The notes under the pieces: generated by a model
What the model was told of the DNA's origin: nothing
The model's database searches: none
Seen by the model: only the letters and a program-made list of their open reading frames with translations
Program-made: the position numbers and the translations under genes
From: PVC group bacterium
Lineage (GTDB): Bacteria; Omnitrophota; Gorgyraeia; B26-G9
Length of the DNA stretch: 64,000 nucleotides
Assembly: GCA_024231215.1 (NCBI GenBank)
Contig: JAAEQR010000072.1
Coordinates: 129,210-193,209 of the forward strand
Direction: 5' to 3'
Shown: positions 29,705 to 59,090 of the stretch, one piece after another
How positions within the stretch are numbered: the first letter of the stretch is position 1
Layout of the letters: each line of letters starts with the position of its first letter

Positions 29705-30451
29705 ATGAAATTAGTCCAAAATAGAAAATTTAGCTGGGTTCTCAGATTTAGCGTAATGCTGCTTATCCAGGCAGTGTTGACGGTAAATACTGTCTGGGCA
29801 AGTTTGGACAGTAATACCTTGGCACCTAGACTTGCGGTTAATATAGAAAGTTTTAAAGAGAAAATAGCAGTTTCTAGAATAACTTTAGATAAGTATTTAC
29901 AAAAAGAAGAGAAGCGAAGGGTACGGGCAGAAAAGCGTCAGAGAGAAAAGCTGGAGAGGAAAAAAGAAGCTGCCGAACTTAAAGGTGAGTATGAAAAATA
30001 TAAAAAATATACTATTGGTGATCTTAGAAAAAAACTTAAGCTGGGTAAGGAAATATTAGTATCGAATTTTCAGATAGTTCCGGGCATAGGTAATATTCGA
30101 GCAGCTGTTATTGGCAATGAAGTATTACTTAGAAGTCAGAATGCAACATTATGGCTTACATTTCGGTATGATGGGACAGAGATTTTTATCGGAGGTAAAA
30201 AGTTTTACAGAATTGAGAATGAAAATGTTTTGGTAGATGATGACAATTATGAAAATAGAATAAAACTGGAACAAGTTGGAAATCGACTTATTCTTGATTT
30301 AGATAAAATAACTGGGAATAAAGATATAGATAGATTTTTTGGACGAAAGAAACAAAAAGCAACAACTGAATTATCAGAAGGATTAATTAAAGATAGGATC
30401 CCGGATACACCTGAGGAGTTGTTAGGTTTATTGCTGGAACAGGCGATATAG
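29705..30451 (+). CDS. exported hypothetical protein, C-terminal EQAI family
   Basis: Signal peptide LLIQ...NTVWA, LAP motif, ends LLEQAI. Confidence 0.78.
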   Translation: MKLVQNRKFSWVLRFSVMLLIQAVLTVNTVWASLDSNTLAPRLAVNIESFKEKIAVSRITLDKYLQKEEKRRVRAEKRQREKLERKKEAAELKGEYEKYKKYTIGDLRKKLKLGKEILVSNFQIVPGIGNIRAAVIGNEVLLRSQNATLWLTFRYDGTEIFIGGKKFYRIENENVLVDDDNYENRIKLEQVGNRLILDLDKITGNKDIDRFFGRKKQKATTELSEGLIKDRIPDTPEELLGLLLEQAI

Positions 30452-30480
30452 TTGGTTAATAGTGAGAGTAGTTGATAGTT

Positions 30481-32652
30481 ATGAATAGAAATTCCAGAAT
30501 AATAGTTAAATTAGTGATTATCATGCTTATACAGATGATGATGACGGGGAATACTGTCTGGGCTTTGTCTCCTCATATACAAGTGCAAAATGCAGAGATG
30601 AGAAATGTATTTACTGACTCTGCTATTGATCAGGCACTTGAATATGAAAGAAAAATTCATGAAGAACTCAAACAAGAATTTGACAAGTCAAGAATTTGCA
30701 ATTTACCTAATAGGCAAAGATTTTTAGAAGATTTAGTCGAGGATCTGGATCAGGGGAAAAAGATTCAGGCGGTATATCTTAATATTCAAAATTTCAAGGG
30801 GGAATTTAATGATTTTGGGGATGCTTTGGATGAACTGGCAAAGTGGTATAAACAGGATAAAATGAGTGTTATTGGACATGAATTTGGCGATTTTGGGATT
30901 CAGGCTGTTGCTGAGTATTTGACAACATCGTTAAGGCAGATGCTGGGACAGACAGGGAATAGTAATGTCACATTCAAGATTTATAATGATGCAAAAAGTT
31001 TCTGGGTTATATTTGAGGATTTACCGGACTGGTTTGATGCTAAAGAAATTTTAGTTAAACTTCTGTCAGATGATTTTGCTTTTAAAAGTAATGTGGTTAA
31101 GAGAATTAAACAACGTATGGAAGAAAGAATTCAAAACAAAGAGCAAACAGGAGAAGTTGATTTAGTAAAAGCTAAAAAATTGAGAAATAGAATGAAAGAA
31201 TTTAATGAAAATAATTTTAATATCTATGCAGGTGTTTCCCAATTATTTACTCGCCAGAAAAATCAGAGTATTATTGCTACAGCTCATACTATAGATTCAC
31301 AGGTTCTTTTAGCTGCAAAATTTGCGCAGTTTAATTTGATAAATCATGATTTGGCAGCTGAGCAGAAAAAAAGGGTTAATGATGAAGAAGGACTGAAACA
31401 GTGGTTGAGGGGGGTTGTAGCAGAGTGTCGTGAGGCAAGAAAAAGCCGGGTAGAATCGTTTAACTTGGACTTGAGAAAGAAAGTGAGATTATACAAAAAA
31501 TATGGTCAAAGAGAAGAGTTGGAATCGATTTATACCCCTATTAAACAAGTATACGATGATGCCAATACTTATAAAAAACTTATGCAGAGATATGAAGCAG
31601 CATTGGAGACTAAAGATATTAATTTGATAAAAGAAGTTAAAAAAAATGCTTTCTGGAAGATGGTTGTATATCCTTTGGGTGATTTTTTAGATGGAATTGC
31701 AGCCAGACCAATATTCTCAGGAAATCAGAGAGTTGCGGATATGATAAATCATATAGTATTAAATCAGCCAGACCGGAATTGGTCAGGTACGTTTAAAATT
31801 GGTGGGGATGAATTTGTTAAGATAGTATGGGAAGCTGGAGAAGATAGATTATATAGTTATATTTACAGTTTTGATGTGAATAATTTAGGTCGAACTAATA
31901 TTCAATGGGGGGTAAGAGTTGGCGATATGCTTTTAGATACTATGGTCTGGCTGTTTGATGAACTGGAAAACCCAGATATGGAATATATCTATAAGTTTTT
32001 CCGGAACGAGAATAAAAAAGTAAAGAATTTTCGTGATTTAAATGTAGAGATTACAGCGAATGACTATGCATATCTTAGGGTGATGATGTCGGAAAATGGC
32101 AGAGATATTGAGGACTATACTTATACTAGAGATGGTAAGTACTATTTAGAACAAATACCTCCGGTACGGGTAGAAGTAGAAGATGAAAAGACAGGTGAAA
32201 TGACAGAGTATTATTCTACGCCTTTTGCGGCAATAGGTATGGTTCATGTTGATACGAAAGTAGTGCACAGGGCAAAATTAAGTAATGCTGAACCATTTAA
32301 TATCTACAGAAATTACGGTCCGGTACGTGGTCGTGCTGATAGTGCTTCATTAAGGGTAAAGGAATTTATAAAAAAATATCAACTTTATAATGGCGGAAAT
32401 GTTTCTCCTGATGCTCTTAAGAAAGCGAAAAGAAGGATGGAAGCTGACGCTTTGGAAGAAAAAGCTATTATTACGTTTAAAGAAGAAAAAATGTCGTTAT
32501 TGCAAAGAGAATTAGCAGAGTTTATTTTTGCACATTATGTTGAGCTTTCTGACCCGAGCAATAGTTCAAGAGATCAGGATGCGAATATTATTACCCAGGA
32601 TCATTTAAACGGGATGGAAGTGTCGTCTGAGTTGTGTGAACAGGCGATTTAA
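30481..32652 (+). CDS. exported protein with degenerate/permuted GGDEF domains, C-terminal EQAI family
   Basis: Signal MLIQ...NTVWA-LSP; NLPNRQRF, NIQNFKGEFND, GHEFGD, KIGGDEF, FDVNNL...GVRVGD; ends CEQAI. Confidence 0.8.
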   Translation: MNRNSRIIVKLVIIMLIQMMMTGNTVWALSPHIQVQNAEMRNVFTDSAIDQALEYERKIHEELKQEFDKSRICNLPNRQRFLEDLVEDLDQGKKIQAVYLNIQNFKGEFNDFGDALDELAKWYKQDKMSVIGHEFGDFGIQAVAEYLTTSLRQMLGQTGNSNVTFKIYNDAKSFWVIFEDLPDWFDAKEILVKLLSDDFAFKSNVVKRIKQRMEERIQNKEQTGEVDLVKAKKLRNRMKEFNENNFNIYAGVSQLFTRQKNQSIIATAHTIDSQVLLAAKFAQFNLINHDLAAEQKKRVNDEEGLKQWLRGVVAECREARKSRVESFNLDLRKKVRLYKKYGQREELESIYTPIKQVYDDANTYKKLMQRYEAALETKDINLIKEVKKNAFWKMVVYPLGDFLDGIAARPIFSGNQRVADMINHIVLNQPDRNWSGTFKIGGDEFVKIVWEAGEDRLYSYIYSFDVNNLGRTNIQWGVRVGDMLLDTMVWLFDELENPDMEYIYKFFRNENKKVKNFRDLNVEITANDYAYLRVMMSENGRDIEDYTYTRDGKYYLEQIPPVRVEVEDEKTGEMTEYYSTPFAAIGMVHVDTKVVHRAKLSNAEPFNIYRNYGPVRGRADSASLRVKEFIKKYQLYNGGNVSPDALKKAKRRMEADALEEKAIITFKEEKMSLLQRELAEFIFAHYVELSDPSNSSRDQDANIITQDHLNGMEVSSELCEQAI

Positions 32653-32768
32653 TGCTTCGACAAACTCACCACTAGAATATCTATGATTAATCAATCCATA
32701 TAACACATATATTTGTCTTGCCTTATGATTTCTAAATGTTAGAATATGTTTTGTAAGGGGGAAAGTAT

Positions 32769-34931
32769 ATGCCTATTTATAATTCTAGACAGAAAATAAA
32801 ATCAGGAATGACGCTTGGCGGTATTGGTGCAGGCAAGCTGGAAATCACTCCTTACGGAACCATAGATTATCTGACTCTCCAGAACAATTGGACTAATCCG
32901 CTAAAAAATCAAACCAATCAGGAAAAAGCAAAAGCACAGGGAGTGGCTGGTTTTCATTTTGCGTTGCATGTTAATACGCAGGCTGCGGTTGTCTGTAAGC
33001 TCTTACAGACAGAAAAAATCCAGGATTACAATACAATTAAACATATAGATTTTAATGCAAAGTTTCCGTTTGCCAATCTTACTTATAAAGATGATAATCT
33101 TCCGGTGGAGATATCCCTTTGTGCATATTCTTTTTTAATCCCCGGAGATGTTAAACATTCCAGCCTTCCGGCCGTGGTATTTGAATTCCAGATAAAAAAT
33201 AAGATTCATAAGGAAATAGAAGTAGGATTATTATCTATAGGCAGAAATATTATAAGCTGTAATTCGGTAGGTCGTTTTAATGCTTTGCGGAAGGAAGGTA
33301 AGCTTATAGGCATAGAATTTTCTCATGAAAAACCTTTGGCACATGATACAACTGCGGGAGATATGTTTATGGCTGTGCCTAAGAAGAGTGGAGAGATTAG
33401 TTTTTGGAGCCAGTGGAATATGCAGCGTGAGAAGTTTTGTTTTGAGCCGAATGTTGGGCTTGATGCTTTCGAGTATTTTGAAAAAGAAGGTTGTTTGCCG
33501 AATATAACTTCACATAAACCGACAGAAAGTCAGAGTGTTGAGCTCGGTGCTGCTTTGGCGGTAAATTCTACCCTTAAACCGCATGAACAGAAAAAAATAC
33601 CCTTTATTCTAACCTGGAATTTTCCGCGGCATTTTCAGGGACATTTTTATGAACGCGGTTTTAATAAAAGTCGGGATACTGCAGTTTATATATCAAAAAA
33701 CTTAGATAATTTAAAAGGTTCTACGACACAGCTGCCGATGATTTTAAATGAAATGGAGACTCCTGACTGGCTTAATGATGCTTTGATGAATAATTTATAT
33801 CCATTATTTTCTTCTACATGGTTTACCCGAAAGTCTGATTTTACGATGTATGAAGCACCGTTGTGTTGTCCTTTGATGGGAACTCTGGATGTGTATTTTT
33901 ATGCTTCTGTAGCTGTGGGATTTCTTTTCCCGGGGTTAGATAAACGTGCGCTTATGCTTTTTAAAAAGAATATGCGTAAATCAGGATATGTGCCGCACGA
34001 TATTGGCTATGAACGTATTGATTTACCGTCTAACGGGACAACTACTCCATTGTGGAAGGATCTTAATTCTAAACTTATTTTGCTTGTATATAAGGCGTAT
34101 TTAGGTTCAGGAGATCTAAAGTTTTTAAAAGAAATGTATCCAGCCCTTAAGAGAGCATTTGTATTCAGTCTGACGTATGATAAAAACGGAGATGGGTTAC
34201 CTGATAATGAAGGATTTGATACAACGTTTGATACTTGGGGCTTTACCGGAGCTAGTTCCTATAATGGCGGGGTGTTTTTAGTCGGACTTTTGGCGCTTAA
34301 ACGTATTGCAGAGATATTGAATGATAAAAAAACAGCTTTAAAATGTGTGCAGAGCTTTATGCGGGGAAGAAAGACAATGGAAGAAACGCTTTGGAACGGA
34401 AAATACTATATTACTGCTCTAAGCGATAATAAGAAATATGATTCATGCATGGTTGCCCAGCTTTTCGGGCAATGGTACGCATATCTTTTAGGATTGGGTC
34501 GAATGTTTCCGGAAGAAAATATCAAAAATTCAATTAGTTGGATATTTAAGTTAAATAATAACGATTCTCCGTTTGGAGCTACGAATTCTGTGTTTTTAAA
34601 CCGAAAGCGTGATGAACAGTACTATCACTCACGTAATATCTGGCCTGGAGTATGTTATTCTTTTGCCGCACTGGCTATCCATGAAGGTTTTGTAAAAGAA
34701 GGACTGAAATTAACGAAGAAAGTCTGGGATACTTTGAGTGTGAAAAATAAGAATCCCTGGAATCAGCCGGATGTAATAATTGCAAAAGACGGGAGTTTTG
34801 GGTTTGGTGATTATTATATGAGAAATATGGTGATCTGGGCGGTTCTTTTGGCTTTAGCGGAAAAAGATAAAAAAGTCAGAAGAGGGTTGGAAAAGATAAA
34901 AGAATTAGTGAATTCTCACATCACGCCTTAA
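32769..34931 (+). CDS. GH116 glycoside hydrolase (non-lysosomal glucosylceramidase family)
   Basis: GMTLGGIGAG, SSLPA, GTLDV, WKDLNSK, DKNGDGLPDN...TFDTW, QLFGQWY, YMRNM. Confidence 0.88.
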   Translation: MPIYNSRQKIKSGMTLGGIGAGKLEITPYGTIDYLTLQNNWTNPLKNQTNQEKAKAQGVAGFHFALHVNTQAAVVCKLLQTEKIQDYNTIKHIDFNAKFPFANLTYKDDNLPVEISLCAYSFLIPGDVKHSSLPAVVFEFQIKNKIHKEIEVGLLSIGRNIISCNSVGRFNALRKEGKLIGIEFSHEKPLAHDTTAGDMFMAVPKKSGEISFWSQWNMQREKFCFEPNVGLDAFEYFEKEGCLPNITSHKPTESQSVELGAALAVNSTLKPHEQKKIPFILTWNFPRHFQGHFYERGFNKSRDTAVYISKNLDNLKGSTTQLPMILNEMETPDWLNDALMNNLYPLFSSTWFTRKSDFTMYEAPLCCPLMGTLDVYFYASVAVGFLFPGLDKRALMLFKKNMRKSGYVPHDIGYERIDLPSNGTTTPLWKDLNSKLILLVYKAYLGSGDLKFLKEMYPALKRAFVFSLTYDKNGDGLPDNEGFDTTFDTWGFTGASSYNGGVFLVGLLALKRIAEILNDKKTALKCVQSFMRGRKTMEETLWNGKYYITALSDNKKYDSCMVAQLFGQWYAYLLGLGRMFPEENIKNSISWIFKLNNNDSPFGATNSVFLNRKRDEQYYHSRNIWPGVCYSFAALAIHEGFVKEGLKLTKKVWDTLSVKNKNPWNQPDVIIAKDGSFGFGDYYMRNMVIWAVLLALAEKDKKVRRGLEKIKELVNSHITP

Positions 34932-34980
34932 AATGGGGTTAAATTGCAAATCCTGCCTGTATATGCTATACTAACAAGCT

Positions 34981-35436
34981 ATGGAAAATAAGGTTATTGC
35001 GAGGAATAAAACGGCATTCCATCGCTACGATATCATTGAAAAAATCGAAGCAGGTATTGCTCTTAAAGGCACGGAAGTGAAGTCGCTTCGTAAGCATAAT
35101 GTTGATTTAAAAGACAGTTATGCCAGGGTCTCTAACGGTGAAGTATTTATTCACAATATGTATATAACTCCTTATGAAGAAGCTAGTTATAACAATGAAG
35201 AACCGCGACGTATTCGTAAGCTTTTATTGCATAAAAGAGAAATAGACAAACTCCTGGGTAAAGTACACCAGAAGAGCCTGACTATAATTCCGTTAAGCTT
35301 GTATTTTAATAATAAAGGAAAAGCTAAAATTGAACTGGCTGTGGCTAAAGGCCGGAAGATATATGACCAAAGGGAAAAGATAAAGAAGAAGGAAGTAGAA
35401 ATACAGTTACGCAAAGTCCAGAGTTTTAGAAAATAA
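34981..35436 (+). CDS. smpB: SsrA-binding protein
   Basis: EAGIALKGTEVKSLR, RKLLLHKREI, AKGRKIYD. Confidence 0.97.
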   Translation: MENKVIARNKTAFHRYDIIEKIEAGIALKGTEVKSLRKHNVDLKDSYARVSNGEVFIHNMYITPYEEASYNNEEPRRIRKLLLHKREIDKLLGKVHQKSLTIIPLSLYFNNKGKAKIELAVAKGRKIYDQREKIKKKEVEIQLRKVQSFRK

Positions 35437-35522
35437 TAGGTTCTTTGAAATCACAATACCTTTTTATATTAATTACGTTTTTTGGATTTTATTTTGTTGT
35501 TAATTTGTAATTTTTGTATTGG

Positions 35523-35954
35523 GGGGGTGAAAGGTTTCGACTTAGGTTAATTTAGTAAGAGCAGCATGTCGAGGTGGTCGGGAGGCCTCGTAAAACACCT
35601 GACAAACACATAAACGCTGAAAGTAAAATTCCAGCTAGCGTAGATTCACTCATTTCAAAAATTGGTGAGGGTATTTCTCATCCGGTTTTTGGAGGAATGG
35701 CTCTAAGCCCAAGTGTTGCTTTAAGATAAAGCAACCCGCTTTTTAGTGAGTGTCTGTGGCATTAAAAAGCGTCATAAGCAGGCTCGTTAAATATGGTTAG
35801 TTTTTGACATATTTGATTAAACATTTCAAAAGCTGCCTTTGCAAGTATCTTGTTTGTCGGAGACTTGTTGAGAAAGATTAAATGACAGACTAAACATGTA
35901 GATACTCTTATTGGTTTCTTAAGGACGCGGGTTCAATTCCCGCCACCTCCACCA
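35523..35954 (+). ncRNA. ssrA: tmRNA
   Basis: GGGGGTG/CACCTCC acceptor with G3:U, TTTCGAC, GCATGTCGAGG PK1 region, GGACGCGGGTTCAATTCCCGCC T-arm, ACCA end; adjacent to smpB. Confidence 0.95.
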
Positions 35955-36008
35955 TTCGACGTGGTTGCTCATGGTGAACCAGATTACAGTAGTTTTTGAA
36001 GGAATTTC

Positions 36009-37097
36009 ATGTTGGCTAGAAAACAGCGTTGCGATATAGTTATATGTTTTTTTATTTGTAGCCTGTTGATAAGCGGGTGTGCTTCATCAAAGGCGTTGAA
36101 GAGGACAGATGGAGCACAGCTTAGAATAGACAAAAAACATTATTTGAAACTTACTGATGTTTGTTCAGAACATGGGGTATCATGGCAATGGGACGGATTT
36201 TCTGATATTGTTATCGTTAAAAAGCTTAATCGAGAAATAAGATTATACCCCGGAAGTTCTTTGATACTGCATAACGGCCAGATTCAGGACATGTATATGC
36301 CGGTACAAATTAGTAAAGGGTTGATATTGGTCCCCATATCTTTTTTGAATTTGGTTGCAGATGGGCCTAAGGACTTCATTGATCAGGAAAAGGAATATAC
36401 TCTTGGCATAGAGAGAGTTGTTATTGACCCTGGCCACGGAGGTAAAGATCCTGGAGCAAGTAGTAATGGTATACAGGAAAAAAATATTGCTTTAGATGTT
36501 GCACAACGTTTAAAACAGGAGCTGGTTAAGCAGGGAATTCAGGTCATTATGACTCGTGATACAGATGTGTTCATTCCGTTACATGAACGCGCTGAGATTG
36601 CTAACCGGGCAAAGGCGGATTTTTTTATTAGTATACATGTGAATGCTTCTACTTCTAGTACTCCACATGGCTTTGAGGCGTTTTATTTATCAGATAAATA
36701 TGATAATTTTTCTAAAGCAGTACAAATAAGAGAAAATGCGGTTGTTAAATTAGAGAAAGGAAGCGAGCATAAATATACTACGGATTTAAATGCAACACTT
36801 TGGGATATGATTTTAGCTGAAAACCGGATTGAATCAATTGAAATGGCTTATGCGATTTCCGAAAAAATGGAAAGAATGTTACATTTAAAAACACGATATA
36901 TTAAAGGTGCTAATTTTTATGTATTAAAAGGCACTTGTGTCCCGGCAGTATTATTGGAAATCGGTTATCTGACAAATGGTACAGAAGGGGCAAGGCTTAA
37001 TAATGTTTATTATCGGCAGATGATTGCAGAAACAATTGCTGCGGGTATTGTTGGTTATAAAGAGCGTTTTGAACTAACGAATGGATTTAGCAGATGA
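36009..37097 (+). CDS. N-acetylmuramoyl-L-alanine amidase (Amidase_3), lipoprotein
   Basis: Lipobox LISGC, IDPGHGGKDPGA, FISIHVNA, PAVLLEIGY. Confidence 0.93.
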   Translation: MLARKQRCDIVICFFICSLLISGCASSKALKRTDGAQLRIDKKHYLKLTDVCSEHGVSWQWDGFSDIVIVKKLNREIRLYPGSSLILHNGQIQDMYMPVQISKGLILVPISFLNLVADGPKDFIDQEKEYTLGIERVVIDPGHGGKDPGASSNGIQEKNIALDVAQRLKQELVKQGIQVIMTRDTDVFIPLHERAEIANRAKADFFISIHVNASTSSTPHGFEAFYLSDKYDNFSKAVQIRENAVVKLEKGSEHKYTTDLNATLWDMILAENRIESIEMAYAISEKMERMLHLKTRYIKGANFYVLKGTCVPAVLLEIGYLTNGTEGARLNNVYYRQMIAETIAAGIVGYKERFELTNGFSR

Positions 37098-37903
37098 AAA
37101 CTTCAAGACCGATTGGTATTTTTGATTCCGGGATGGGTGGGTTAACTGTTGTTAAAGAGATTACCCGTATTTTACCGCAGGAAGACATTGTTTATTTTGG
37201 TGATACAGCAAGAGTTCCTTATGGGCCTAAGTCTGAGGAAACAGTAATTCGTTTTTCTATCGAAAATATTCTTTTTCTATTAAAATATAATGTTAAATTA
37301 ATTGTTGTAGCTTGTAACACTGCTTCGAGTGTTGCGTTACCTACACTGAAAAAACATTTTAAAATTCCGCTTTTAGGTGTGATTGAGCCAGGGGCGGAAA
37401 AGGCAGTTGGTATTACAAAAAATAGAAAAGTAGGAGTTATTGGTACCAAGACTACAATTAAAAGTGGAGCGTATAAGCGGAATATAAAAGAAAATGCTGC
37501 GGATGTGAATGTGTACAGTGCTTCTTGTCCGCTTTTTGTGCCATTGGTGGAGGAGGGCTGGTTTAATCATCCGATAACAAAGAAGATTGCTTATGAATAT
37601 CTGGATCCGCTTAAGGCTAAAGGCATAGATAGTGTTGTTTTAGGATGTACGCATTATCCTTTGCTTAAACCAGTGATCAGGCAGGTATTGGGTAAGAATG
37701 TTGCTTTGATTGATTCTGCGAAGCAGGTTGCTCAGCAGTCAAGGTTGATCTTGGAGCAGAATAACTTAATTAGAAAGAGGAATAAATCTCAAGTAGCTAA
37801 GGTTAGATTTTTTGTTAGTGATGAACCGGAAAACTTTGCCCGACAGGGGAGTAAATTTCTCGGGGTTCCATTGCACGATGTGAGGAAGGTGTCTAATGTT
37901 TGA
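37094..37903 (+). CDS. murI: glutamate racemase
   Basis: FDSGMGGL, PYG, VACNTAS, LGCTHYP. Confidence 0.97.
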   Translation: MKTSRPIGIFDSGMGGLTVVKEITRILPQEDIVYFGDTARVPYGPKSEETVIRFSIENILFLLKYNVKLIVVACNTASSVALPTLKKHFKIPLLGVIEPGAEKAVGITKNRKVGVIGTKTTIKSGAYKRNIKENAADVNVYSASCPLFVPLVEEGWFNHPITKKIAYEYLDPLKAKGIDSVVLGCTHYPLLKPVIRQVLGKNVALIDSAKQVAQQSRLILEQNNLIRKRNKSQVAKVRFFVSDEPENFARQGSKFLGVPLHDVRKVSNV

Positions 37904-38264
37904 AATAAGTGTTGTCTCAAATTTTAGTGCGGCACATAATTTGCTTAATTATAAGGGTAAGTGTGAGAATTTACACGGTCATAATTGGCAGGTCGAAGCA
38001 GTGTTTGGCGCAGAAGAGTTGGATAAAAGTGAAATGGTTATGGATTTCAAAGATGCCAAAAAGATCTTGAAAAATATTTTAAGATCTTTTGATCATAGTT
38101 ATATAAATGATACAGAGCATTTTAAAAAGATGAGTCCTACTTCGGAAAACATTGCTCGCTTTATTTTTAAGTGTTTGGTTGAAAAAACAAAACATCGTAA
38201 ATATCGGGTATTAAGAGTTAGTGTTTGGGAAACCCCTGGAAGTAAGGCTACTTACTATGAATGA
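37896..38264 (+). CDS. queD: 6-carboxytetrahydropterin synthase
   Basis: FSAAH, CENLHGHNW, PTSENIA, VWETP. Confidence 0.95.
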   Translation: MFEISVVSNFSAAHNLLNYKGKCENLHGHNWQVEAVFGAEELDKSEMVMDFKDAKKILKNILRSFDHSYINDTEHFKKMSPTSENIARFIFKCLVEKTKHRKYRVLRVSVWETPGSKATYYE

Positions 38265-38341
38265 ACAAAGGGGGTTCCGCGAACGAAGTGAAGCGCTACT
38301 TCCGGGCAATAAAGCAACATATTATGAATAAGAAATTAGGA

Positions 38342-39004
38342 ATGAAGAAGCGGGCAGTGGTGTTATTGTCGGGAGGGTTGGATTCGGCAACAACACTCTA
38401 CTTTGCCCGAAAAAAAGGGTATGAAATATTCTGTCTTTGCTTTGATTATGGGCAGCGGCATAAGAAAGAAATAAAATTAGCGCAGAAGTTAGCGTGTGTT
38501 TCAGGAAGTAAATGGCAAATGGTTAAGTTTAGTATGCCCTGGACAAGTTCTTCGTTATTGGATAAAAAAAGATTGGTACCTAAAGATCGTGATTTTAATG
38601 GAGAAATTCCATCGACATATGTGCCGGCAAGAAATATTGTGTTTTTAAGTTTCGCTGCATCTTTTGCCGAAGCTGTTGGTGCAAGAGTTGTTTTTATCGG
38701 AGCAAATCAAATTGATTATTCCGGATATCCAGACTGTAGGGATGATTTCCTGAAAGCTTTTGAGCAAGCTTTACGCAAAGGAACGAAGAGCGGGGTGGAA
38801 GGCCGGAAGAAGATATCGATTATAGCGCCTTTGGTAAATAAAAATAAAGCCCAGATAATAAAAATGGCAAAAAAATTAGGAGTACCTCTTGAGCTTACGT
38901 GGTCTTGCTATAATGGCGGTAAATCACCTTGCGGTGTTTGTGATAGCTGTCGTCTTCGCAGTCATGGTTTTGAAAAAGCAAAAAGTAAAGATCCTGTGCA
39001 ATGA
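38342..39004 (+). CDS. queC: 7-cyano-7-deazaguanine synthase
   Basis: LLSGGLDS, YVPARN, YPDCR, TWSCY, CGVCDSC; start may be 38324. Confidence 0.95.
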   Translation: MKKRAVVLLSGGLDSATTLYFARKKGYEIFCLCFDYGQRHKKEIKLAQKLACVSGSKWQMVKFSMPWTSSSLLDKKRLVPKDRDFNGEIPSTYVPARNIVFLSFAASFAEAVGARVVFIGANQIDYSGYPDCRDDFLKAFEQALRKGTKSGVEGRKKISIIAPLVNKNKAQIIKMAKKLGVPLELTWSCYNGGKSPCGVCDSCRLRSHGFEKAKSKDPVQ

Positions 39005-47683: not shown

Positions 47684-47696
47684 TACATTCTGTTGC

Positions 47697-47812: not shown

Positions 47813-47819
47813 GTTCGGA

Positions 47820-48063: not shown

Positions 48064-48143
48064 AAATTACATGTGATGCTTTTAAGTTTCATCTTAACCA
48101 TTGACTTTTACGACGACTAATCATAAAATAAACTTAAATTATG

Positions 48144-48287
48144 TTAAACCCGAACTATGCATTAGGCTGCGGCGAATAGCATTAATCTTTGCCATACCAC
48201 AGAGGGGATGCCTGTATTTTTTGTAAGTATTTTATCTCAAAAATCTTAGCACTCTTCATCCGCCTTCTAATACATAATCCGGGTTAA
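48144..48287. repeat. long imperfect inverted repeat (about 42-bp arms)
   Basis: AACCCGAACTATGCATTAG.../...CTAATACATAATCCGGGTT. Confidence 0.7.
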
Positions 48288-48301
48288 TAAAGAGGTAAGT
48301 T

Positions 48302-49258: not shown

Positions 49259-49282
49259 TTTTGATTGCTGAGGGAGGAAATA

Positions 49283-50953: not shown

Positions 50954-50956
50954 AGA

Positions 50957-52060
50957 ATGATTGCTAAAGATGAAAGAAGCCTTTTAATTTATAATACGCG
51001 CTTAATTGAGGGCGACAGGATTAAAAAAAAATCCTGGATTTTATTAAAAAACGGTAAAATAAAACAATACGGCGACGGGAAGAAGAAAGCACCTAAAGCC
51101 GTAAAATCTATAAATGCCCGCAATTGTTATCTTGCTCCCGGTTTTATTGATTTGCATATTCACGGAGAAATAGATACGATTTCCCGAAATCAGATTAAAT
51201 ATGGAACCACCGCATTTTTACATGCCTTGTATGCAAATAGACCTGCTAAGCTTTGCGAATTAATTAAGTTAAACAAACAAATAAAATTATCGGGTGCAAA
51301 ATGTTTAGGTTTTAATATCGAAGGGCCTTTTTTAAACCGACAGATGGCTGGAGCACAACCCAAAGCTGGGATTATTAAGCCGGATATTAGACAGTTAAGT
51401 AAGTTATTAAAATATGCAGGTAAAAATATAAAAATAATGACACTTGCCTGCGAATTAAACGGTAGTGATAAAGTTATAGGAATATTGAAAAAAAACAGGG
51501 TTATTCCGGCTTTAGGACATACGAAGGCTGATTTCGAACAGGCAATTGAGGCGATGAATGCTGGAGCAAATTACGGAACCCATGTGTTTAATCGCATGGG
51601 TGATTTATCGTCGAAGGATCCGGACATAATAACGGCAATGCTCATAAATGATTTAGTAACAATCGAAGTGATTGCTGACGGTAAACATGTACACCCCATG
51701 CTATTAAAGCTTTTAGTTAACAATAAACCGCAGGAACGTATTGTACTAGTAACAGATTCTGTGGCAGGGATGAAGACAATCAAAATGAAGAAAGAGGGAG
51801 GCGTATATACCCTGCTAGACGGTACAATTGCCGGAAGCAATCTTAATATGGCACAAGCAGTTAGAAATATGGTAAAATATTGCAATGTCAGTATCCCTGT
51901 GGCAGTAGGCATGGCTAGTACTAATCCAGCCAAGGTTTTAGGGATATGTAACCGTAAAGGTACTATAGCGGTAGGCAAGGATGCTGACTTAGTTATTTTT
52001 GATAATAAATTTAAGATAAAGTTTACGTTAATAAGCGGAAAAATCAAGTATAAGAATTAA
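50957..52060 (+). CDS. nagA: N-acetylglucosamine-6-phosphate deacetylase
   Basis: PGFIDLHIHG, EGPF, GHT, THVFN, DGKHVHP, VTD, IAGS. Confidence 0.92.
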   Translation: MIAKDERSLLIYNTRLIEGDRIKKKSWILLKNGKIKQYGDGKKKAPKAVKSINARNCYLAPGFIDLHIHGEIDTISRNQIKYGTTAFLHALYANRPAKLCELIKLNKQIKLSGAKCLGFNIEGPFLNRQMAGAQPKAGIIKPDIRQLSKLLKYAGKNIKIMTLACELNGSDKVIGILKKNRVIPALGHTKADFEQAIEAMNAGANYGTHVFNRMGDLSSKDPDIITAMLINDLVTIEVIADGKHVHPMLLKLLVNNKPQERIVLVTDSVAGMKTIKMKKEGGVYTLLDGTIAGSNLNMAQAVRNMVKYCNVSIPVAVGMASTNPAKVLGICNRKGTIAVGKDADLVIFDNKFKIKFTLISGKIKYKN

Positions 52061-52077
52061 ACAATAGAGGTGAGAGT

Positions 52078-54048
52078 ATGTGTGGAATAGTTGGATATAT
52101 TGGAAAAAAGAATGCAGTGCCGATTTTAATGGATGGTTTAAGCAGCCTTGAATATCGAGGATATGATTCAGCTGGCATAGCTGCAATGGATAAAGGCCAG
52201 CTTTGCATGTCAAAACGAGCAGGTAAGTTAAAGATTTTAGCCGAATGCCTTAAGAAAAATCCGGTAAAAGGAGCGATTGGGATAGGTCATACGCGCTGGG
52301 CTACGCATGGTGAGCCCAACGAAATAAATTCACATCCCCACTATAGCTGTAAGAGTGATTTTGTAATCGTGCACAACGGGATTATTGAAAACCATCATGA
52401 ACTAAGAGAAAAGCTAAAAAAAGAAGGGCATAAATTTCGTTCTCAAACAGATACTGAAGTTGTTGTCCATTTGATTGAAAAGCTTTATAAAGGTAATTTG
52501 CTCAAAGCAGTTTGTGCGGCAATTCGGCAGCTGCACGGTAGCTTTGCTTTGGGAGTAATCAGTACGCATCACCCGGATATGCTGGTTGCTGCACGTAAAG
52601 ATAGTCCGCTTATTGTGGGCGTAGGTAAAGGAGAGAATTATATAGCTTCTGATGTGCCGGCAATATTGAAATATACAAGAGAAGTTATTTATCTTGATAA
52701 TAACGAAGTTGCGGTTTTAACACGTGACAAGGTTGCTTTATATAACACTAAAGAAGCGCCGATAAAGAAAAAAACGGCAAAGATTAAATGGGATTCAGCT
52801 AGTGCTGAAAAAGCCGGATATCCTCATTTCATGATCAAGGAAATCAACGAACAGCCGCAAGTATTAAAAACCATCTTAAATCACAGGATAAAAGGTAATC
52901 GTGTAGTTTTCGAGAAATTCAATATCTCAGAAGCAAAATTAAAAAAAATTAATAATATTCAGATTGTTGCTTGTGGCACAGCTTATCACGCGGGCTTATG
53001 CGGTAAATATATTTTAGAAAAATTGCTTAGGTTACCTATTAATGTGGATACATCAAGTGAATTTCGTTATCGTGATCAGATTATCACAAAAGGCAGGACA
53101 TTGATTATTGTGGTAAGCCAGTCAGGAGAAACAGCAGATACCTTAGCTAGTTTAAGAGAAGCGAAGAAAAAAGGCGCAGTAGTTGCTTCTATTTGCAATG
53201 TTGTAGGTAGTTCTATTGCTCGGGAATCAGATGGAGTGATTTATACCTTAGCTGGTCCGGAGATCGCCGTGGCGTCGACTAAAGCCTATACAGCTCAGTT
53301 AACTACATTTTATCTTCTAGGTATTTATCTAGGGCGTATTTATGGTACAGTTAGTGATAAAGCAACAAAGAAATTGTTGGGGGAACTGGCCAAAGTTCCT
53401 GGACTGATGACCCAGAGTCTTAAAGAACATAAAAAAGTCAAAAAAGTTGCTGATCAGTATATTAGAAGGTATGACTATAGATTAGCTGAGCAGTTAATGT
53501 TTTTAGGGGATGAAATTTGGCGGTTTAAAGATCCTAAAAAAGCGCTTGCATTTGCTCAACAATGTGCTAAAAAATCACATTCTGCTTATGGTAAGCGGTT
53601 CGGAGATTTTCCTTTCTTGTACCTTGGACGGAACGTTAACTATCCTAGTGCCTTAGAAGGAGCCTTAAAACTTAAAGAAATAACCTATATTAGTGCAGAA
53701 GGCTATGCTGCCGGAGAGATGAAGCATGGACCGATTGCACTTATCGACGAATTTCCACTGGTTGTATGTATTACTCCTCAGTCTGCAGTTTATGAAAAGA
53801 TGCTTTCGAACATTAAAGAGATTCGGGCGAGAAAAGGTGTAGTTTTATCTGTAGCCACAGAAGGGGATAAGGAAATCAGGAAAAAAGAATACTCTGATTA
53901 TGTTATAGAGATTCCAAAAATTGATGAATTCTTCTCCCCGTTGCTAGTAGCATTACCGTTACAGTTATTGTCCTATTATATTGCGGTGGGTTTAAAATGT
54001 GACGTAGACCAGCCGCGAAATCTAGCTAAGAGCGTTACTGTAGAATAG
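52078..54048 (+). CDS. glmS: glutamine-fructose-6-phosphate transaminase
   Basis: MCGIVG, LEYRGYDSAG, GHTRWATHG, SQSGETADT, PRNLAKSVTVE. Confidence 0.98.
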   Translation: MCGIVGYIGKKNAVPILMDGLSSLEYRGYDSAGIAAMDKGQLCMSKRAGKLKILAECLKKNPVKGAIGIGHTRWATHGEPNEINSHPHYSCKSDFVIVHNGIIENHHELREKLKKEGHKFRSQTDTEVVVHLIEKLYKGNLLKAVCAAIRQLHGSFALGVISTHHPDMLVAARKDSPLIVGVGKGENYIASDVPAILKYTREVIYLDNNEVAVLTRDKVALYNTKEAPIKKKTAKIKWDSASAEKAGYPHFMIKEINEQPQVLKTILNHRIKGNRVVFEKFNISEAKLKKINNIQIVACGTAYHAGLCGKYILEKLLRLPINVDTSSEFRYRDQIITKGRTLIIVVSQSGETADTLASLREAKKKGAVVASICNVVGSSIARESDGVIYTLAGPEIAVASTKAYTAQLTTFYLLGIYLGRIYGTVSDKATKKLLGELAKVPGLMTQSLKEHKKVKKVADQYIRRYDYRLAEQLMFLGDEIWRFKDPKKALAFAQQCAKKSHSAYGKRFGDFPFLYLGRNVNYPSALEGALKLKEITYISAEGYAAGEMKHGPIALIDEFPLVVCITPQSAVYEKMLSNIKEIRARKGVVLSVATEGDKEIRKKEYSDYVIEIPKIDEFFSPLLVALPLQLLSYYIAVGLKCDVDQPRNLAKSVTVE

Positions 54049-54097
54049 GGGTTGACAAACAAAAAGAAATATTGTAAACTTTAAACTCTAACTACAA

Positions 54098-54174
54098 GGG
54101 CGCGTGGCACAGTTGGTTAGAGCACCTCCCTTACAAGGAGGGGGTCGTAGGTTCGAGTCCTACCGCGCCCACCA
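54098..54174 (+). tRNA. tRNA-Val(TAC)
   Basis: Cloverleaf, loop CTTACAA, CCA; TTGACA-17-TAAACT promoter upstream. Confidence 0.96.
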
Positions 54175-54326
54175 TGAGTTTACCTGACGGACTCGAATCG
54201 AGTTGAGCGCCGAGCAGGTGCGAGGAAAAGCGAGCAGGACTGTGAGCGAAAGCGAAACGAGGCGGGCCTGCGCAGCGAACAACAGGAAGTTGTGAGTGTA
54301 GTAGGCGAGTCCTACCGCGCCCACCA
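54175..54326 (+). repeat. tRNA-linked element copy B, ending in a 21-bp duplicate of the tRNA-Val 3' end
   Basis: CGAGTCCTACCGCGCCCACCA at 54154-54174 and 54306-54326; core shared with copy A. Confidence 0.9.
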
Positions 54327-54376
54327 TTTTCCCAGTAAGGGGAAATAGTTCGATACAAATATAAGACTAAATTTTT

Positions 54377-54454
54377 GGAGCCGTAGTTCAGCTGGTTTAG
54401 AACGTCGGACTGTCGATCCGAAGGTCGCGGGTTCGAACCCCGTCGGCTCCGCCA
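54377..54454 (+). tRNA. tRNA-Asp(GTC)
   Basis: Cloverleaf, loop CTGTCGA, CCA. Confidence 0.96.
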
Positions 54455-54461
54455 TAAATAT

Positions 54462-54490
54462 ACCTTCATCCGAAAGGATGAGGGTTTTTT
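54462..54490 (+). terminator. intrinsic terminator after tRNA-Asp
   Basis: ACCTTCATCC-GAAA-GGATGAGGGT + T-run. Confidence 0.88.
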
Positions 54491-54669
54491 CTTATTATTG
54501 ACAGTAGCTATTGTCCATAGTATTATCTATAGTATCTTATTTAAAAGGAAGTTCGGGCACAAAAAGAGTAAGGGGGTACCCTACAGTGCTACGGACATAA
54601 TTCGCAGACGGTCTAATGGCCTATAATTTACGTAACCGTAAATTATCTGCTTATTGAAGGAGAATTATT

Positions 54670-55464
54670 ATGGACTGGGGAATGAAAAACCGCTTAAGCC
54701 AGCTTTTCAAAAAAGACGGACATTGTTTTTTCTTACCGATTGATCACGGATATTTTCAGGGTCCGACTCGCTGTTTAGAAAAACCAGCAGAAACAATTAA
54801 GCCTTTATTACCTTATTGTGATGCATTGTTTGTTACCAGGGGTGTTTTGCGTGCATGTGTAAAGCCGATCGGTAGTAAGCCAATTATCCTGAGAGTTTCA
54901 GGCGGCACGAGCATGGTGGGCAATGACTTGGCGAATGAGGTTCTTACTACAGCTATCGAAGATATCATCAGGCTTAATGCTTCGGCAGTCGGGGTGTCTG
55001 TTTTTATCGGTAGTGATTATGAAAAGCAAACTTTATCTAATCTAGCTGATTTAGTTAATGAATGTGAAGATTACGGGATTCCGGTGATGGCAGTTACTGC
55101 GGTAGGTAAGGAAATAGAGAAAAGAGAGGCACGTTATTTAGGTTTGTGCTGTCGTATCGCAGCTGAATTAGGTGCTAAAGTAGTAAAGACATACTGGTGT
55201 GATAAAGATTTCGATAAGGTAGTCAAAGGATGCCCTGTGCCGGTAGTTATGGCTGGTGGTCCTAAATGTAAAACAGAGAAGGAAGTATTTGAGTTTGTTT
55301 ATTCTGGTATGCAGGATGGAGCTGTAGGTATAAATTTAGGCAGGAATGTATGGCAGAGTCCTTATCCGGTGGCTGTAGCGGCCGCATTACAGGCGATCAT
55401 CCATAAGAAAGCGAATGTAAAAGATGCTTGTAAAATATTTGATGAAATGAAAAAAAAGATTTAA
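54670..55464 (+). CDS. lsrF: LsrF-like class I aldolase/thiolase
   Basis: MDWGMKNRL, DHGYFQGP, AELGAKVVKTY, AGGPK, GRNVWQ. Confidence 0.85.
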   Translation: MDWGMKNRLSQLFKKDGHCFFLPIDHGYFQGPTRCLEKPAETIKPLLPYCDALFVTRGVLRACVKPIGSKPIILRVSGGTSMVGNDLANEVLTTAIEDIIRLNASAVGVSVFIGSDYEKQTLSNLADLVNECEDYGIPVMAVTAVGKEIEKREARYLGLCCRIAAELGAKVVKTYWCDKDFDKVVKGCPVPVVMAGGPKCKTEKEVFEFVYSGMQDGAVGINLGRNVWQSPYPVAVAAALQAIIHKKANVKDACKIFDEMKKKI

Positions 55465-55533
55465 GATTAACACAAAAGAGAATTTTTGTGAGCTATACAA
55501 AGAACAGTATATTAAAGGGATGGTTTTATTAAC

Positions 55534-56511
55534 ATGCAAGTAGCAGTTTATTATAGTAATGATGATATTCGCTTGGAAGAGCGACCGGTTCCTGAGATAG
55601 AAGAGGGAGAGATATTGATTAAGGTACTGGCTAGTGGTATTTGCGGTACAGATGTTATGGAATGGTACCGGATAAAAAAAGCACCGCGTATATTAGGACA
55701 TGAGATTACAGGTGAGATTGTCGAGTCTAAATCTGATAAATATAAAGTTGGGCAAAGAGTTTTTGTAAGTCATCACGTACCTTGTAATAAATGCAAATAT
55801 TGTTTAGCTGATAATCATACTGCCTGTGAAACTTTGCATAAAGGTAATTATGATCCGGGTGGATATAGTGAATTTATCCGTGTGCCTAAAATAAATGTAG
55901 ATATTGGTACATACATATTGCCGGCTAATGTTTCTTTGGAAGAGGGGACTATGATCGAGCCCTTAGCTTGTGTTGTAAGAGGGCAGAGGCTTATTAACCT
56001 AAAAGAAGGCCAGACAGTTTTAATTTTAGGTAGTGGGGTTTCCGGATTATTGAATATTAAGATGGCAAAATTGCATGGAGCAAAAGTTATTGCTACAGAT
56101 GTTAACGAATACAGATTGAACAAAGCCAAAGAATACGGAGCAGACCAGGTAATAAACGCAAAAGAAGGTGTTTATTTAACGGCAGATAAAGTAATTGTTT
56201 GTACCGGAGCAATGTCTGCTATAGAGCAAGCATTTGAATGTGTAGACAGAAAAGGCATCATTTTATTTTTTGCTATTCCCCATAGAGATATCCCTGTGCC
56301 TACAGTTGATTTCTGGCGTAATGAGATTACAATGATCTCTTCTTACGGAGCTGCGCCAGCTGATCTGGTTGAGGCTCTGGATATTATAACCCGCAAACAA
56401 GTCGATATAAAATCACTTATAACTCATACCCTTCCTTTAACGGACATTCAAAAAGGATTCAAGCTGGTTGCTGAAGCTAGAGAATCTTTAAAAGTTGTTC
56501 TAACCGCCTGA
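55534..56511 (+). CDS. zinc-dependent alcohol dehydrogenase (sorbitol dehydrogenase-like)
   Basis: GICGTD, GHE, CNKCKYC...C, EPLAC, GSGVSG. Confidence 0.9.
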   Translation: MQVAVYYSNDDIRLEERPVPEIEEGEILIKVLASGICGTDVMEWYRIKKAPRILGHEITGEIVESKSDKYKVGQRVFVSHHVPCNKCKYCLADNHTACETLHKGNYDPGGYSEFIRVPKINVDIGTYILPANVSLEEGTMIEPLACVVRGQRLINLKEGQTVLILGSGVSGLLNIKMAKLHGAKVIATDVNEYRLNKAKEYGADQVINAKEGVYLTADKVIVCTGAMSAIEQAFECVDRKGIILFFAIPHRDIPVPTVDFWRNEITMISSYGAAPADLVEALDIITRKQVDIKSLITHTLPLTDIQKGFKLVAEARESLKVVLTA

Positions 56512-56541
56512 TATCAAATAAGATATATTCCGCATCCAGAC

Positions 56542-56570
56542 TTGCATTATCTTATCGATCATGGTATACT
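56542..56570 (+). promoter_or_regulatory. sigma70-type promoter
   Basis: TTGCAT-17-TATACT with extended TG. Confidence 0.6.
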
Positions 56571-56618
56571 TAATTACCTTTTTTAACCATAACACTTTCA
56601 AAGTAAAAGAGATCGAAG

Positions 56619-59090
56619 ATGAAGACTGTTTCAGACAGTAAAAAATCAATTAAAATAATAGCATTTGTGCTCATACAAACGATTCTATTTTCTAATGGAG
56701 CATTTTGTCTGGAATCTATTTCTAGCCAAAGAGAGTCTAATGATTTATTATCTCCATCGGTACATATCAGTATAGAATCAATTAAAAGCTCTTTTCAAGG
56801 AATGGATACATCACCCCACATTATTTTCAATAAAAAGCAGATGCAGGAATTAAAAGATTACTTAAAAACTATTCCTTTGGCAGCAGAATCATCGATAAAG
56901 CTAGTTATCTTTGATTGGGGAAATGTGATTCATAATTTTACCTATGAAATTCCTGCTCAACGGTTAGCTGAAGATTTTAAGGTTGAGCCGCAAAAAGCGT
57001 TTAATTTTTTTAAGAAAAGAAATGAAGATCCCAATAATCCTGTGTATAGATATGAAAATGGGATGATTAATCAGAATGAATTGCTATTTGAGATGCGCAG
57101 GTGGTTAAAATCTAATAGCTATGTAAATGAAAATAATTTAACTCATAAAAAATTAGAAGACTTGTTAAACAGTATCTGGATACAACAGATACCCGAAACC
57201 GTAGCTTTAATTCAAGAGTTATATAAAAAGGGATATAAGGTTCGTGTTTTATCAACCACAAATGATATACATTATCGGTTTTTTAGAGATGTGTTGAACC
57301 GACCGGGCAAGGATCAGATACTGGTTGATCCTGATAAGAATTTTTATGGTTCTCATATGATGGAAGATCCGAAGCCGCATCCGAAAAGTTATTTACAGGT
57401 GATCAAAGAGGCGGGAGAGGTTTCTGAAAGTGCAGTATTTATTGATGATAGAGTAGATTCCTGCAATGGAGCAATAAAAGCTGGCGTGGGAGCAGCGGTG
57501 TTATTTGATCCCATATATGCTCTTGAGAGCATTAGGACAACAATGCAGATATTATTAGAAGCTGCATCCGAGAATAAGTTAAGAAAATTACAAGCAAGAG
57601 ATATGATCAATCCCCAAGAGAGTAAGGCATCTATTCAACAAGAAATAACCCGGATGGTTACTCCTTTGCCAGAACAGGATAAACACACTAGTCTATTAAA
57701 TGAAAGTATAAAACGATATCATAATATAACTATTGATCAAAAAGCCTTGGATCGATTTAAAGATATTTGGCAGGTAGACACATTGGATATCGGTACGATG
57801 TGGAAATTGATGCTGGAGCTTACAAACTTACCACTTTTGTCTAAGATAGAAAAGATAGTGGGAGGAGAAAAGCATCATCAGTTATTACATGTAAAAGGGA
57901 CGGTTGATTCGTTAGCCGAGATAAATAAATATAGAAAGGGCACTGCTACAGAAGATGATGTAATTGAGTTTTTAAAGCCAGGATATAAAAATAATCATAT
58001 TTCTCCGGGATGTATTCAGCCGATGTTAGAGCGCTATAATCAGATTGATTCGAAAAAATTAAAAGTTTTAGCTTTGGCTGTGATTTTGCACGATTATGGT
58101 AAGCTGATAGCCTGGTCGAATGAGGGGATAGCGGGAGAAGCCATAGTTTATCATTTTCTGGATAAATTCAGGGAAGCTGGAGTTATTACAGCAGAAGAAA
58201 TGTATTTGACCTTATGTATAACCGTATTACATCTGGATCTTGGCATATTACATTTTATGGAGAGTGTTCCGACAGATATATTGCCCTATCTTGAAAAACA
58301 AAAGACAAAGTTAAAAATATTGAATCCTGAATTTGATGGAAAATCTTTTGAAAGAGATTATTTTCAGCTAGCTTCGATTTTGTATTTTGTTGATTTTTCT
58401 AATATTGGGATGCCAGTAGCAACAGATAATCATATTCGAGATGCGGATTTTTTAGGAGTTAGAGAGAATGTAGAGAAATTACTAAATCCGGAATTATTTG
58501 GACCAGCCAGATTATGGCTAGGTATTTTAGGCGCAGGTCGAGAAGTGGTTGTTTTAGAGGACATGGATAAACAATATGAGAGGAATTTTATAGCTGAGAC
58601 AGAATTGCAAAAGTTCACCTTAGAAGAAAAAGACTATTTATATAATACATTTTTAAAATATGCTGGATTACGAGGTCTTTTGATTTATATATTCAGGCAG
58701 ATGAAAGAGACAAATCCGGAGAATGTGATTAAGTTTGTATATTTATTAATGAAGTTATATGAAAAATGCGGGGCCGAAGAAGTAATAAAAATAGTAGATT
58801 CTTTCCCTGTTAATTTTGTAGAAGATGCTGAATTTATGAATAACTGCATTAATTCTAATTCCGATAAATTAAATATTCCAGCGTTAAGGGAACTATTTGA
58901 AACAAGGTTAACAGAGGAAAAAATGATTAAAGTGATTAACTCCTTAGGCATCCCTATTGTTCGAAATGGAAAAAAGATAACAATTAATTTCAAGTCTCGT
59001 CAGCAGCATTCTCAAGTTGACTTACTAGGGGGTGGGGAGTTGCAGCAGTCTTCTTTTTCAAATGTTACAATTCTAGAACATTCTATTTGA
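56619..59090 (+). CDS. exported protein with HAD phosphatase and HD domains, C-terminal EHSI (EQAI family)
   Basis: Signal VLIQ...AFC, LSP motif; FDWGNV, LSTTN, KPHP, FIDD (HAD); ILHDYGK (HD); ends ILEHSI. Confidence 0.82.
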   Translation: MKTVSDSKKSIKIIAFVLIQTILFSNGAFCLESISSQRESNDLLSPSVHISIESIKSSFQGMDTSPHIIFNKKQMQELKDYLKTIPLAAESSIKLVIFDWGNVIHNFTYEIPAQRLAEDFKVEPQKAFNFFKKRNEDPNNPVYRYENGMINQNELLFEMRRWLKSNSYVNENNLTHKKLEDLLNSIWIQQIPETVALIQELYKKGYKVRVLSTTNDIHYRFFRDVLNRPGKDQILVDPDKNFYGSHMMEDPKPHPKSYLQVIKEAGEVSESAVFIDDRVDSCNGAIKAGVGAAVLFDPIYALESIRTTMQILLEAASENKLRKLQARDMINPQESKASIQQEITRMVTPLPEQDKHTSLLNESIKRYHNITIDQKALDRFKDIWQVDTLDIGTMWKLMLELTNLPLLSKIEKIVGGEKHHQLLHVKGTVDSLAEINKYRKGTATEDDVIEFLKPGYKNNHISPGCIQPMLERYNQIDSKKLKVLALAVILHDYGKLIAWSNEGIAGEAIVYHFLDKFREAGVITAEEMYLTLCITVLHLDLGILHFMESVPTDILPYLEKQKTKLKILNPEFDGKSFERDYFQLASILYFVDFSNIGMPVATDNHIRDADFLGVRENVEKLLNPELFGPARLWLGILGAGREVVVLEDMDKQYERNFIAETELQKFTLEEKDYLYNTFLKYAGLRGLLIYIFRQMKETNPENVIKFVYLLMKLYEKCGAEEVIKIVDSFPVNFVEDAEFMNNCINSNSDKLNIPALRELFETRLTEEKMIKVINSLGIPIVRNGKKITINFKSRQQHSQVDLLGGGELQQSSFSNVTILEHSI

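Follow-up and report, generated by a model that had tools for sequence, protein, structure and literature searches.

The stretch of DNA considered here (the window, 64,000 nucleotides) lies on contig C72 (JAAEQR010000072.1) of the Omnitrophota genome G000 (GCA_024231215.1), which comprises 3.3 Mb and is 94% complete. The corresponding RpsB is most similar to that of a Candidatus Omnitrophota record (68% identity). Three open reading frames (ORFs) of the window, in the following called members 1 to 3, are indeed present where a first-pass annotation had placed proteins with shared leaders and tails (Table 1). Each is composed of a signal peptide, an L[SA]P box, an unrelated cargo portion and a tail of the pattern hydrophobic-hydrophobic-x-x-[AS]-I. 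Members 1 and 2 are directly preceded by an unannotated gene, referred to as the QDxH gene, whose product has an ordinary-looking, signal-like N-terminus and ends without box or tail.

Table 1. Positions of the features discussed, counted from the first nucleotide of the window
Feature	Position	Strand	Remarks
QDxH TIKI/TraB-like protein, standalone, 546 aa	27854..29494	+	homology, residue conservation
Member 1, 248 aa, cargo without Pfam or NCBIfam match	29705..30451	+	
Member 1, IQ-type signal peptide to predicted signal peptidase I site	29705..29800	+	sequence
Member 1, L[SA]P box and subsequent hydrophobic pattern	29819..29866	+	
Member 1, tail LLEQAI	30431..30448	+	
Member 2, two GGDEF-like halves	30472..32652	+	726 aa from TTG 30472, 723 aa from ATG 30481
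Member 2, IQ-type signal peptide	30481..30564	+	
Member 2, box, directly at predicted mature N-terminus	30565..30612	+	
Member 2, tail LCEQAI	32632..32649	+	
Member 3, 823 aa, YihX-type HAD phosphatase and HD-like domain	56619..59090	+	
Member 3, IQ-type signal peptide	56619..56708	+	
Member 3, box	56748..56795	+	
Member 3, tail ILEHSI	59070..59087	+	
Two-secretin cluster (AAA ATPase, GspC-like, two secretins, coiled-coil/TPR)	9172..22514	+	

The leader starts with a basic N-region. In the hydrophobic core that follows, a Gln is conserved, and about 11 residues past it an A-x-A-type site is located (18 of 28 parsed members). LIQ, regarded as invariant on the basis of the window proteins, is not a constant element of the family, as 15 of the 39 members have exactly this triplet and 31 have [ILV][ILV]Q. 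A hydrophobicity heuristic for signal peptides is passed by 32/39 members and, judged from the anatomy of the leader, export, presumably via Sec, is very probable. The spacer between the predicted cleavage site and the box is variable (0-29 residues). The box itself reads L-[SA]-P-x-hydrophobic-x-hydrophobic, with additional hydrophobic positions at +11 and +15, and is strictly N-terminal: no internal box occurs in 116,559 residues of cargo from the same order, in which no internal five-residue cut motif is over-represented either. The tail has the consensus L-[VI]-[EG]-[QS]-[AS]-I at the free C-terminus, and conservation is restricted to these last six residues. Neither end of the members is covered by a Pfam or NCBIfam model. 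Cysteine makes up 0.57% of their residues versus 1.36% in other proteins. A promoter scan yielded chance level (22 vs 21.4).

A profile hidden Markov model (HMM) was trained on the first 65 amino acids of the three window proteins alone and was searched against the N-terminal 110 amino acids of the 2,698 ORFs of at least 100 amino acids in the genome, with a cut-off of E<1e-3. As this model was built from N-terminal residues only, the test for leader-tail association is blind to the C-terminus. Apart from the seeds, 24 proteins matched, 23 of which end with [AS][IV], versus 48 of 2,671 other proteins (Fisher p 2e-37). After iteration of the HMM, this ending was present in 33/37 leader proteins and in 38/2,658 others. 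The tail is missing from four leader proteins, namely a member whose sequence ends with EQGV, a protein of 7,815 aa, a neighbour of 150 aa whose leader is similar, and a protein of 653 aa in which the box is variant. The tail is thus tied to the leader, as had been proposed, and does not represent background, since it is found in 6 of 451 other signal-peptide-like proteins, which equals the background rate. In a leave-one-out tail matrix the top 30 ranks are occupied by proteins bearing leader or box. While the C-terminal motif is real, the strict form E[QH][AS]I, in which it was originally worded, matches two of the 24 proteins and proved too narrow. About 40 members are encoded in the genome if marginal cases are included, ten of which lie in a single tandem run on contig C3, and the largest is a giant of 10,730 residues with leader, box and tail. 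In one member (G000:C72:269820-271817) the leader is in frame and has no ATG, GTG or TTG start; upstream of it are an A run and, following a ribosome-binding-like site, an ATT or CTG codon.

Similarity between cargo portions was detected in just one of 741 member pairs, bearing out the description of unrelated middles between shared ends. The two-ended tag family is real and larger than first described. It is conceivable that the ends are relics of gene-module duplication without common function, and tandem arrays as well as the leader DNA of members 1 and 2 would fit such an origin. The DNA that these two genes were said to share at both ends does exist and is short: in the leader, 40 bp match at 80% (E 1e-5), and in the tail 14 bp (E 0.86), an 11-mer of which occurs seven times in the genome. 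The motifs persist at the protein level over genera and families with little DNA identity and over orders as dialects, making duplication without function a very remote prospect. Recent exchange of a DNA cassette was rejected because no more than the 40 bp of leader DNA are shared.

Comparison was extended to 13 genomes of the same order and, in the same sample, to seven of other orders. The full leader is present in 13/13 same-order genomes (10-51 matches each) and in 0/7 genomes of other orders. Tails were scored for leader ORFs inside regions fetched from 12 same-order relatives (107 leader hits had been selected, and 455 leader matches existed overall), and 69 of 79 complete leader-bearing ORFs proved to have one. 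For four of the ten ORFs without tail, the gene appears to be split, and the tail is carried by the following ORF, which has no leader. The ends are therefore coupled in the source genome and in 12 relatives, in agreement with the bipartite signal that had been postulated. In the split cargo genes (loci L177, L195, L175 and L174) the leader ORF abuts the tail ORF, which may be due to frameshift, assembly error or programmed recoding.

A survey of the phylum (sample of 200 genomes) revealed 34 genomes that match the leader weakly, mainly via its signal-peptide half. These leaders head a variant box of the T-L-A-P-x-S-x-F type or the QDxH domain (11/29). Among 20 head-less variant-leader ORFs that were followed, 14 were complete and 11 end with Ala or Thr-Ala-Leu after a helix-like segment. 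Variant boxes and tails in other orders point at lineage dialects of the system, and the tail there terminates a longer conserved C-terminal segment. These findings also bear on the idea that the tail serves as a degradation tag for CtpA/Tsp or ClpX-type proteases and limits the lifetime of potentially harmful enzymes, with the leader alone being responsible for targeting. The tails are non-polar, including Ala-Ala in other orders, and non-polar C-termini resemble known degrons; one S41 peptidase is encoded in the genome. This reading is weakened by the resident tmRNA tag, which ends differently, i.e. with VALR or similar in 9/12 same-order loci. As the tail is moreover missing from other exported proteins beyond the background rate given above and forms part of a longer conserved segment in other orders, a degron is improbable.

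The domain assignments initially made for the window members hold, albeit with different firmness. GGDEF in member 2 is recognized weakly (Pfam E 0.0012, below cut-off), member 3 has kept the HAD motifs and resembles YihX, and its HD-like domain was recovered at an Atlas value of 0.92 with HD on 13% of that cluster. A homolog of member 2 (36%) with box and tail is present in relative G010. In member 2, the first half carries the N-terminal motifs without GGDEF and the second half carries GGDEF ahead of D-x-N-N-L and N-G-GD. The same arrangement of halves is found in the G010 homolog, and the order of motifs suggests a circular permutation. Among all members, cargo domains comprise ClpB-like AAA+, SecA, radical SAM, methyltransferase, PEP-utilising, phosphoglucomutase, TreT, ROK, HD-GYP, GGDEF, HAD, NDK and UDPGP, and also patatin, GH116 and transglycosylase. 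Cargo with a family match is thus mostly of the cytoplasmic type, and more than half of the members are without any match in Pfam or NCBIfam. The proteins from the window have 248-823 residues and most members have 230-2,000 (median 836). Among the tagged proteins are also copies of PGI, SecA and ClpB-like proteins, and the existence of tagged alongside untagged paralogs suggests that cargo has been recruited from ordinary genes.

Domains of this kind need cytoplasmic cofactors. The leader could accordingly be thought of as an uncleaved anchor or a signal read on the cytoplasmic side, such that the enzymes remain at the membrane in the producer's own cytoplasm, where cargo requiring ATP, S-adenosylmethionine (SAM), GTP or phosphoenolpyruvate (PEP) would be supplied. 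The conserved Gln within the hydrophobic core is unusual and would be in line with this idea. Basic N-region, single hydrophobic core and A-x-A-type site, on the other hand, predict N-in/C-out export, the members are depleted in cysteine and the QDxH protein has a signal-like N-terminus itself. We therefore regard retention in the cytoplasm as unlikely.

The QDxH gene is the commonest non-member neighbour of cargo arrays. When close orthologs were picked by homology, box-bearing cargo was found downstream at 12 of 13 loci, either directly or past a small PilZ-like gene (a label based on sequence appearance and on West-Roberts et al.). The slot between the QDxH gene and GH116/smpB accommodates two cargo genes in the window, three in G006 and at least eight in G003, and this cargo differs among G000, G003 and G006, almost all of it being unrelated. 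The GH116 gene bordering the array (32769-34931) is untagged, and a tagged GH116 paralog is located at G000:C99:112679-115573. Small PilZ-like genes are also present at G000:C72:271898-272308 and 308134-308544, among cargo genes beside the giant gene, and are likewise interleaved in arrays of relatives (L183, L193, L198, L199 and L200).

Named homologs of the QDxH protein stem mostly from Omnitrophota and also from Elusimicrobiota. A search of five Bacillota genomes with the head profile, run with no positive control alongside, returned 0/5. In the phylum sample the QDxH domain is present in 137/200 genomes, where it usually heads long ORFs, and as a head it comprises 10,185 representatives at 50% identity. 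It occurs in 32 of the 34 leader-positive genomes; part of this co-occurrence is circular, since the domain is itself often headed by that signal peptide, and related genomes are not independent. Fusions of the domain in cis are informative about the box. L[AS]P follows the domain in 76 of 141 cis-fusions and in 114 of 5,516 control windows, and the five-column core of the leader-box matrix scored beyond the 90th control percentile after the domain in 16/27 cis-fusions and in 102/141 independent proteins. Their ends are small-then-hydrophobic or small-then-Ala in 96/141 cases compared with 132/2,698 in the background. A family of about 730 amino acids combines in one chain the head, the box and a tail that is Ala-Ala, Ser-Val or Ser-Ala (115/120). 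The phylum-wide form of the system consists of signal peptide, TIKI-like head, box, cargo, C-terminal domain and tail; in the order of the source genome the head is mostly split off as a shared trans-acting protein and the tail is shortened to six residues. Linkage of the orthologs to arrays and occurrence of L[AS]P behind the fused domain suggest that the box is the site at which the QDxH protein binds or cuts, and we consider such a link between the two, in cis or in trans, to be likely.

A second standalone QDxH clade is represented by G000:C72:261154-264900 and by L227, L228 and L220. At 4/4 loci it is followed by a conserved protein with the variant box DNMAL-x-SF, the G000 copy of which has no AI tail. 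The two proteins are possibly a cognate enzyme-substrate pair.

Residues D85, H87, E115, R457 and H485 of the QDxH protein do not vary among 31 aligned domains and are found in 148-149 of 149 homologs. Their spacing equals, within one residue, that of the catalytic set of RRSP (E3900/H3902/E3930 and R4001/H4030; PMC6254334), and Asp stands for the first Glu. The TIKI superfamily (Tiki, TraB/PrgY/GumN, Ere esterases, ChaN and RRSP) has Acid-x-His...Glu and Arg...Gly-x-x-His motifs, all of which are found in the QDxH protein with matched spacing; it differs in that about 290 residues separate the motifs of the N-terminal half from the Arg. Its C-terminal half matches the TraB/PrgY/GumN profile with 92% probability and a score of 42.6, compared with 18.1 for the best of 25 shuffled sequences. 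Membership is called into question by the N-terminal half, which compared with TraB or Ere profiles no better than shuffled controls, and by the Pfam models for TraB and ChaN, neither of which matches. Above cut-off, no Pfam or NCBIfam family was assigned, a sequence search of the PDB was negative, and a search of the ESM Atlas retrieved Omnitrophota clusters without names only. Taking the match of the C-terminal half together with the negative results for the N-terminal half, Pfam and PDB, the protein probably belongs to the TIKI superfamily.

Candidates for an exit channel are 11 secretins, which the genome encodes along with 10 full-length ATPases of the PilB/GspE type. The suggestion that the two-secretin cluster of the window accompanies the leader is borne out in part: its marker is present in 10 of 12 genomes of the family and was not found, with the query used, in the one sister-family genome, which has 38 leader matches. 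The cluster could not be assigned as the channel and is one of several candidates. In addition to the genes listed in Table 1, the cluster contains HD and polysaccharide-export-like genes and is syntenic in relative G003. A second signal peptidase was not found, the genome having one signal peptidase I.

Taken together, a chain of events can be proposed in which Sec export and cleavage by signal peptidase I would expose the box. The TIKI-like protein would then bind and probably cut at the box, in cis in the case of giants and in trans where the cargo is small. The free C-terminal tail may be read as a terminal ligand at a later step across the outer membrane, one of the 11 secretin channels may allow passage into a host or prey that is attached to the cell, and the cargo would finally act in a foreign cytoplasm where ATP, GTP, SAM and PEP exist. 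Delivery into a host is suggested by the chemistry of the cargo and by the host-dependent lifestyle of Omnitrophota (PMC10066038). Coupled ends, diverse and polymorphic cargo and a TIKI-like gene that is linked to arrays or fused before the box are observed; for the entire chain, comprising the box/TIKI-like step, the tail and delivery into an attached cell, we would put the chances at slightly below even. A yet broader proposition, namely that Omnitrophota (with related heads in Elusimicrobiota) use a box cut by a TIKI peptidase and a tail to deliver dozens of enzymes per genome into bacterial or archaeal hosts and thereby rewire their metabolism, is less likely than not, yet a real possibility.

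Several findings speak against the proposed chain. The standalone ortholog in G013 is without a cargo ORF in the 678 downstream bases examined. An 11-column matrix derived from the source genome alone scored few cis-fusions well; only the five-column core works. Members of the TIKI fold may be non-catalytic, as exemplified by PMT (PMC6254334). Box and tail do not covary (top z 3.4 versus a null 95% of 5.4; permutation, n=105), leaving a direct clasp between N- and C-terminus without support. Secretin and ATPase candidates are several, and none can be assigned as the channel. Finally, membrane helices are predicted for 33 of 105 members, while 72/105 have none after the box.

The helix-containing members would fit another arrangement, in which box and tail are docking handles. 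With their help the exported enzymes would be gathered on a scaffold, either the TIKI-like protein or another one, that lies in the periplasm, at the surface or in the contact zone of the producer, comparable to a cellulosome and fed by metabolites leaked from the host. Array linkage and the box data from cis-fusions also count in favour of docking, sugar-phosphate metabolism makes up much of the cargo and, for most of the published Omnitrophota giants, association with a membrane is predicted (10.64898/2026.06.07.730766). A conserved pathway is, however, not apparent in the cargo, which is polymorphic among relatives and includes regulators and chaperone-like enzymes, and the putative catalytic residues, kept in 148/149 homologs, would be needless for a mere scaffold. 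Docking appears rather unlikely, yet is the main rival of the sorting chain.

How does such a sorting chain relate to known systems? Cargo of type IX secretion (T9SS) in Bacteroidota, which has a Sec signal peptide and a C-terminal domain, is processed by a dedicated peptidase, PorU. The likeness lies in the two-ended address around interchangeable cargo (PMC12618676; PMC11285876) and in the dedicated, here candidate, peptidase. The T9SS signal is a folded beta-sandwich, whereas the tail of the members comprises six residues ending a probable helix. The members furthermore have an extra box after the signal peptide, and their candidate peptidase is TIKI-like and tied to that N-terminal box. 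The T9SS-type C-terminal domain (Por_Secre_tail) had no match by Pfam or NCBIfam in the members of the genome or in 45 relatives. LPXTG, PEP-CTERM and GlyGly-CTERM proteins combine a Sec leader with a short C-terminal motif on diverse proteins. They end with a transmembrane helix and a basic cluster, while the hydrophobic free C-terminus of the members has neither, and an NCBIfam scan of the members gave no match of the LPXTG/PEP-CTERM type. YSIRK-G/S proteins, accessory Sec substrates and the N22 region of curli CsgA have conserved sequence inside or just after the signal peptide but no coupled C-terminal tail as found in the members. The accessory Sec route uses a free-standing SecA2. A dedicated SecA2 was rejected for the source genome (94% complete), in which the three SecA_DEAD matches are one canonical SecA and two domains inside tagged cargo, and a second free-standing SecA was not found. 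With regard to type II secretion and type IV pili, secretins and GspE/PilB ATPases are both present in this genome.

The members also resemble giant multi-enzyme proteins of Omnitrophota termed 'Archaeovorins' (10.1101/2023.11.21.568195; 10.64898/2026.06.07.730766). Cargo types in common are SecA DEAD, GGDEF, HAD, HD, radical SAM, PGM and ROK. Like Archaeovorins, the members have multi-enzyme cytoplasmic-type cargo behind a signal peptide, and the 10,730-aa giant carries leader, box and tail. Archaeovorins are giant and have many membrane helices, whereas the members are mostly smaller and for the most part free of predicted helices. In the passages considered, Archaeovorin N-termini are characterized as 'lacking identifiable domains', and neither a terminal motif common to the proteins nor a TIKI-like head is mentioned; the word 'motif' does not occur in the text consulted of 10.64898/2026.06.07.730766. 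The members are the small-protein form of these published giants. Leader, box, tail and head are undescribed in the literature searched (including PMC11573180), which did not extend to supplements, data deposits and subscription journals. We are likely dealing with an undescribed sorting system by which enzymes that normally reside inside the cell are exported, with a host or prey as a possible destination. The papers on the giants leave open why cytoplasmic enzymes have signal peptides, whether giants are cut and by which route they exit. The locus provides small testable parts for these questions, i.e. a cargo of 248 residues, a candidate peptidase of 546 residues, a defined box and a tail of six residues. 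With the box and tail motifs one can moreover readily compile the probable exported proteins or effectors of a phylum that is uncultured, widespread and host-dependent.

Two further features of the window are worth mentioning. A tandem pair of galactose-1-phosphate uridylyltransferase-like paralogs is encoded at 5559-7591. The tmRNA is located at 35523-35954, and its tag frame (35616-35729) is unusually long (37 residues) and ends with VALR instead of Ala-Ala. Among the same-order tmRNA tags (L306-L324), 9/12 are long and end with VALR, VVLR, VAFR, PVLL or PVLF, two were unparsed and one is short with Ala-Ala.

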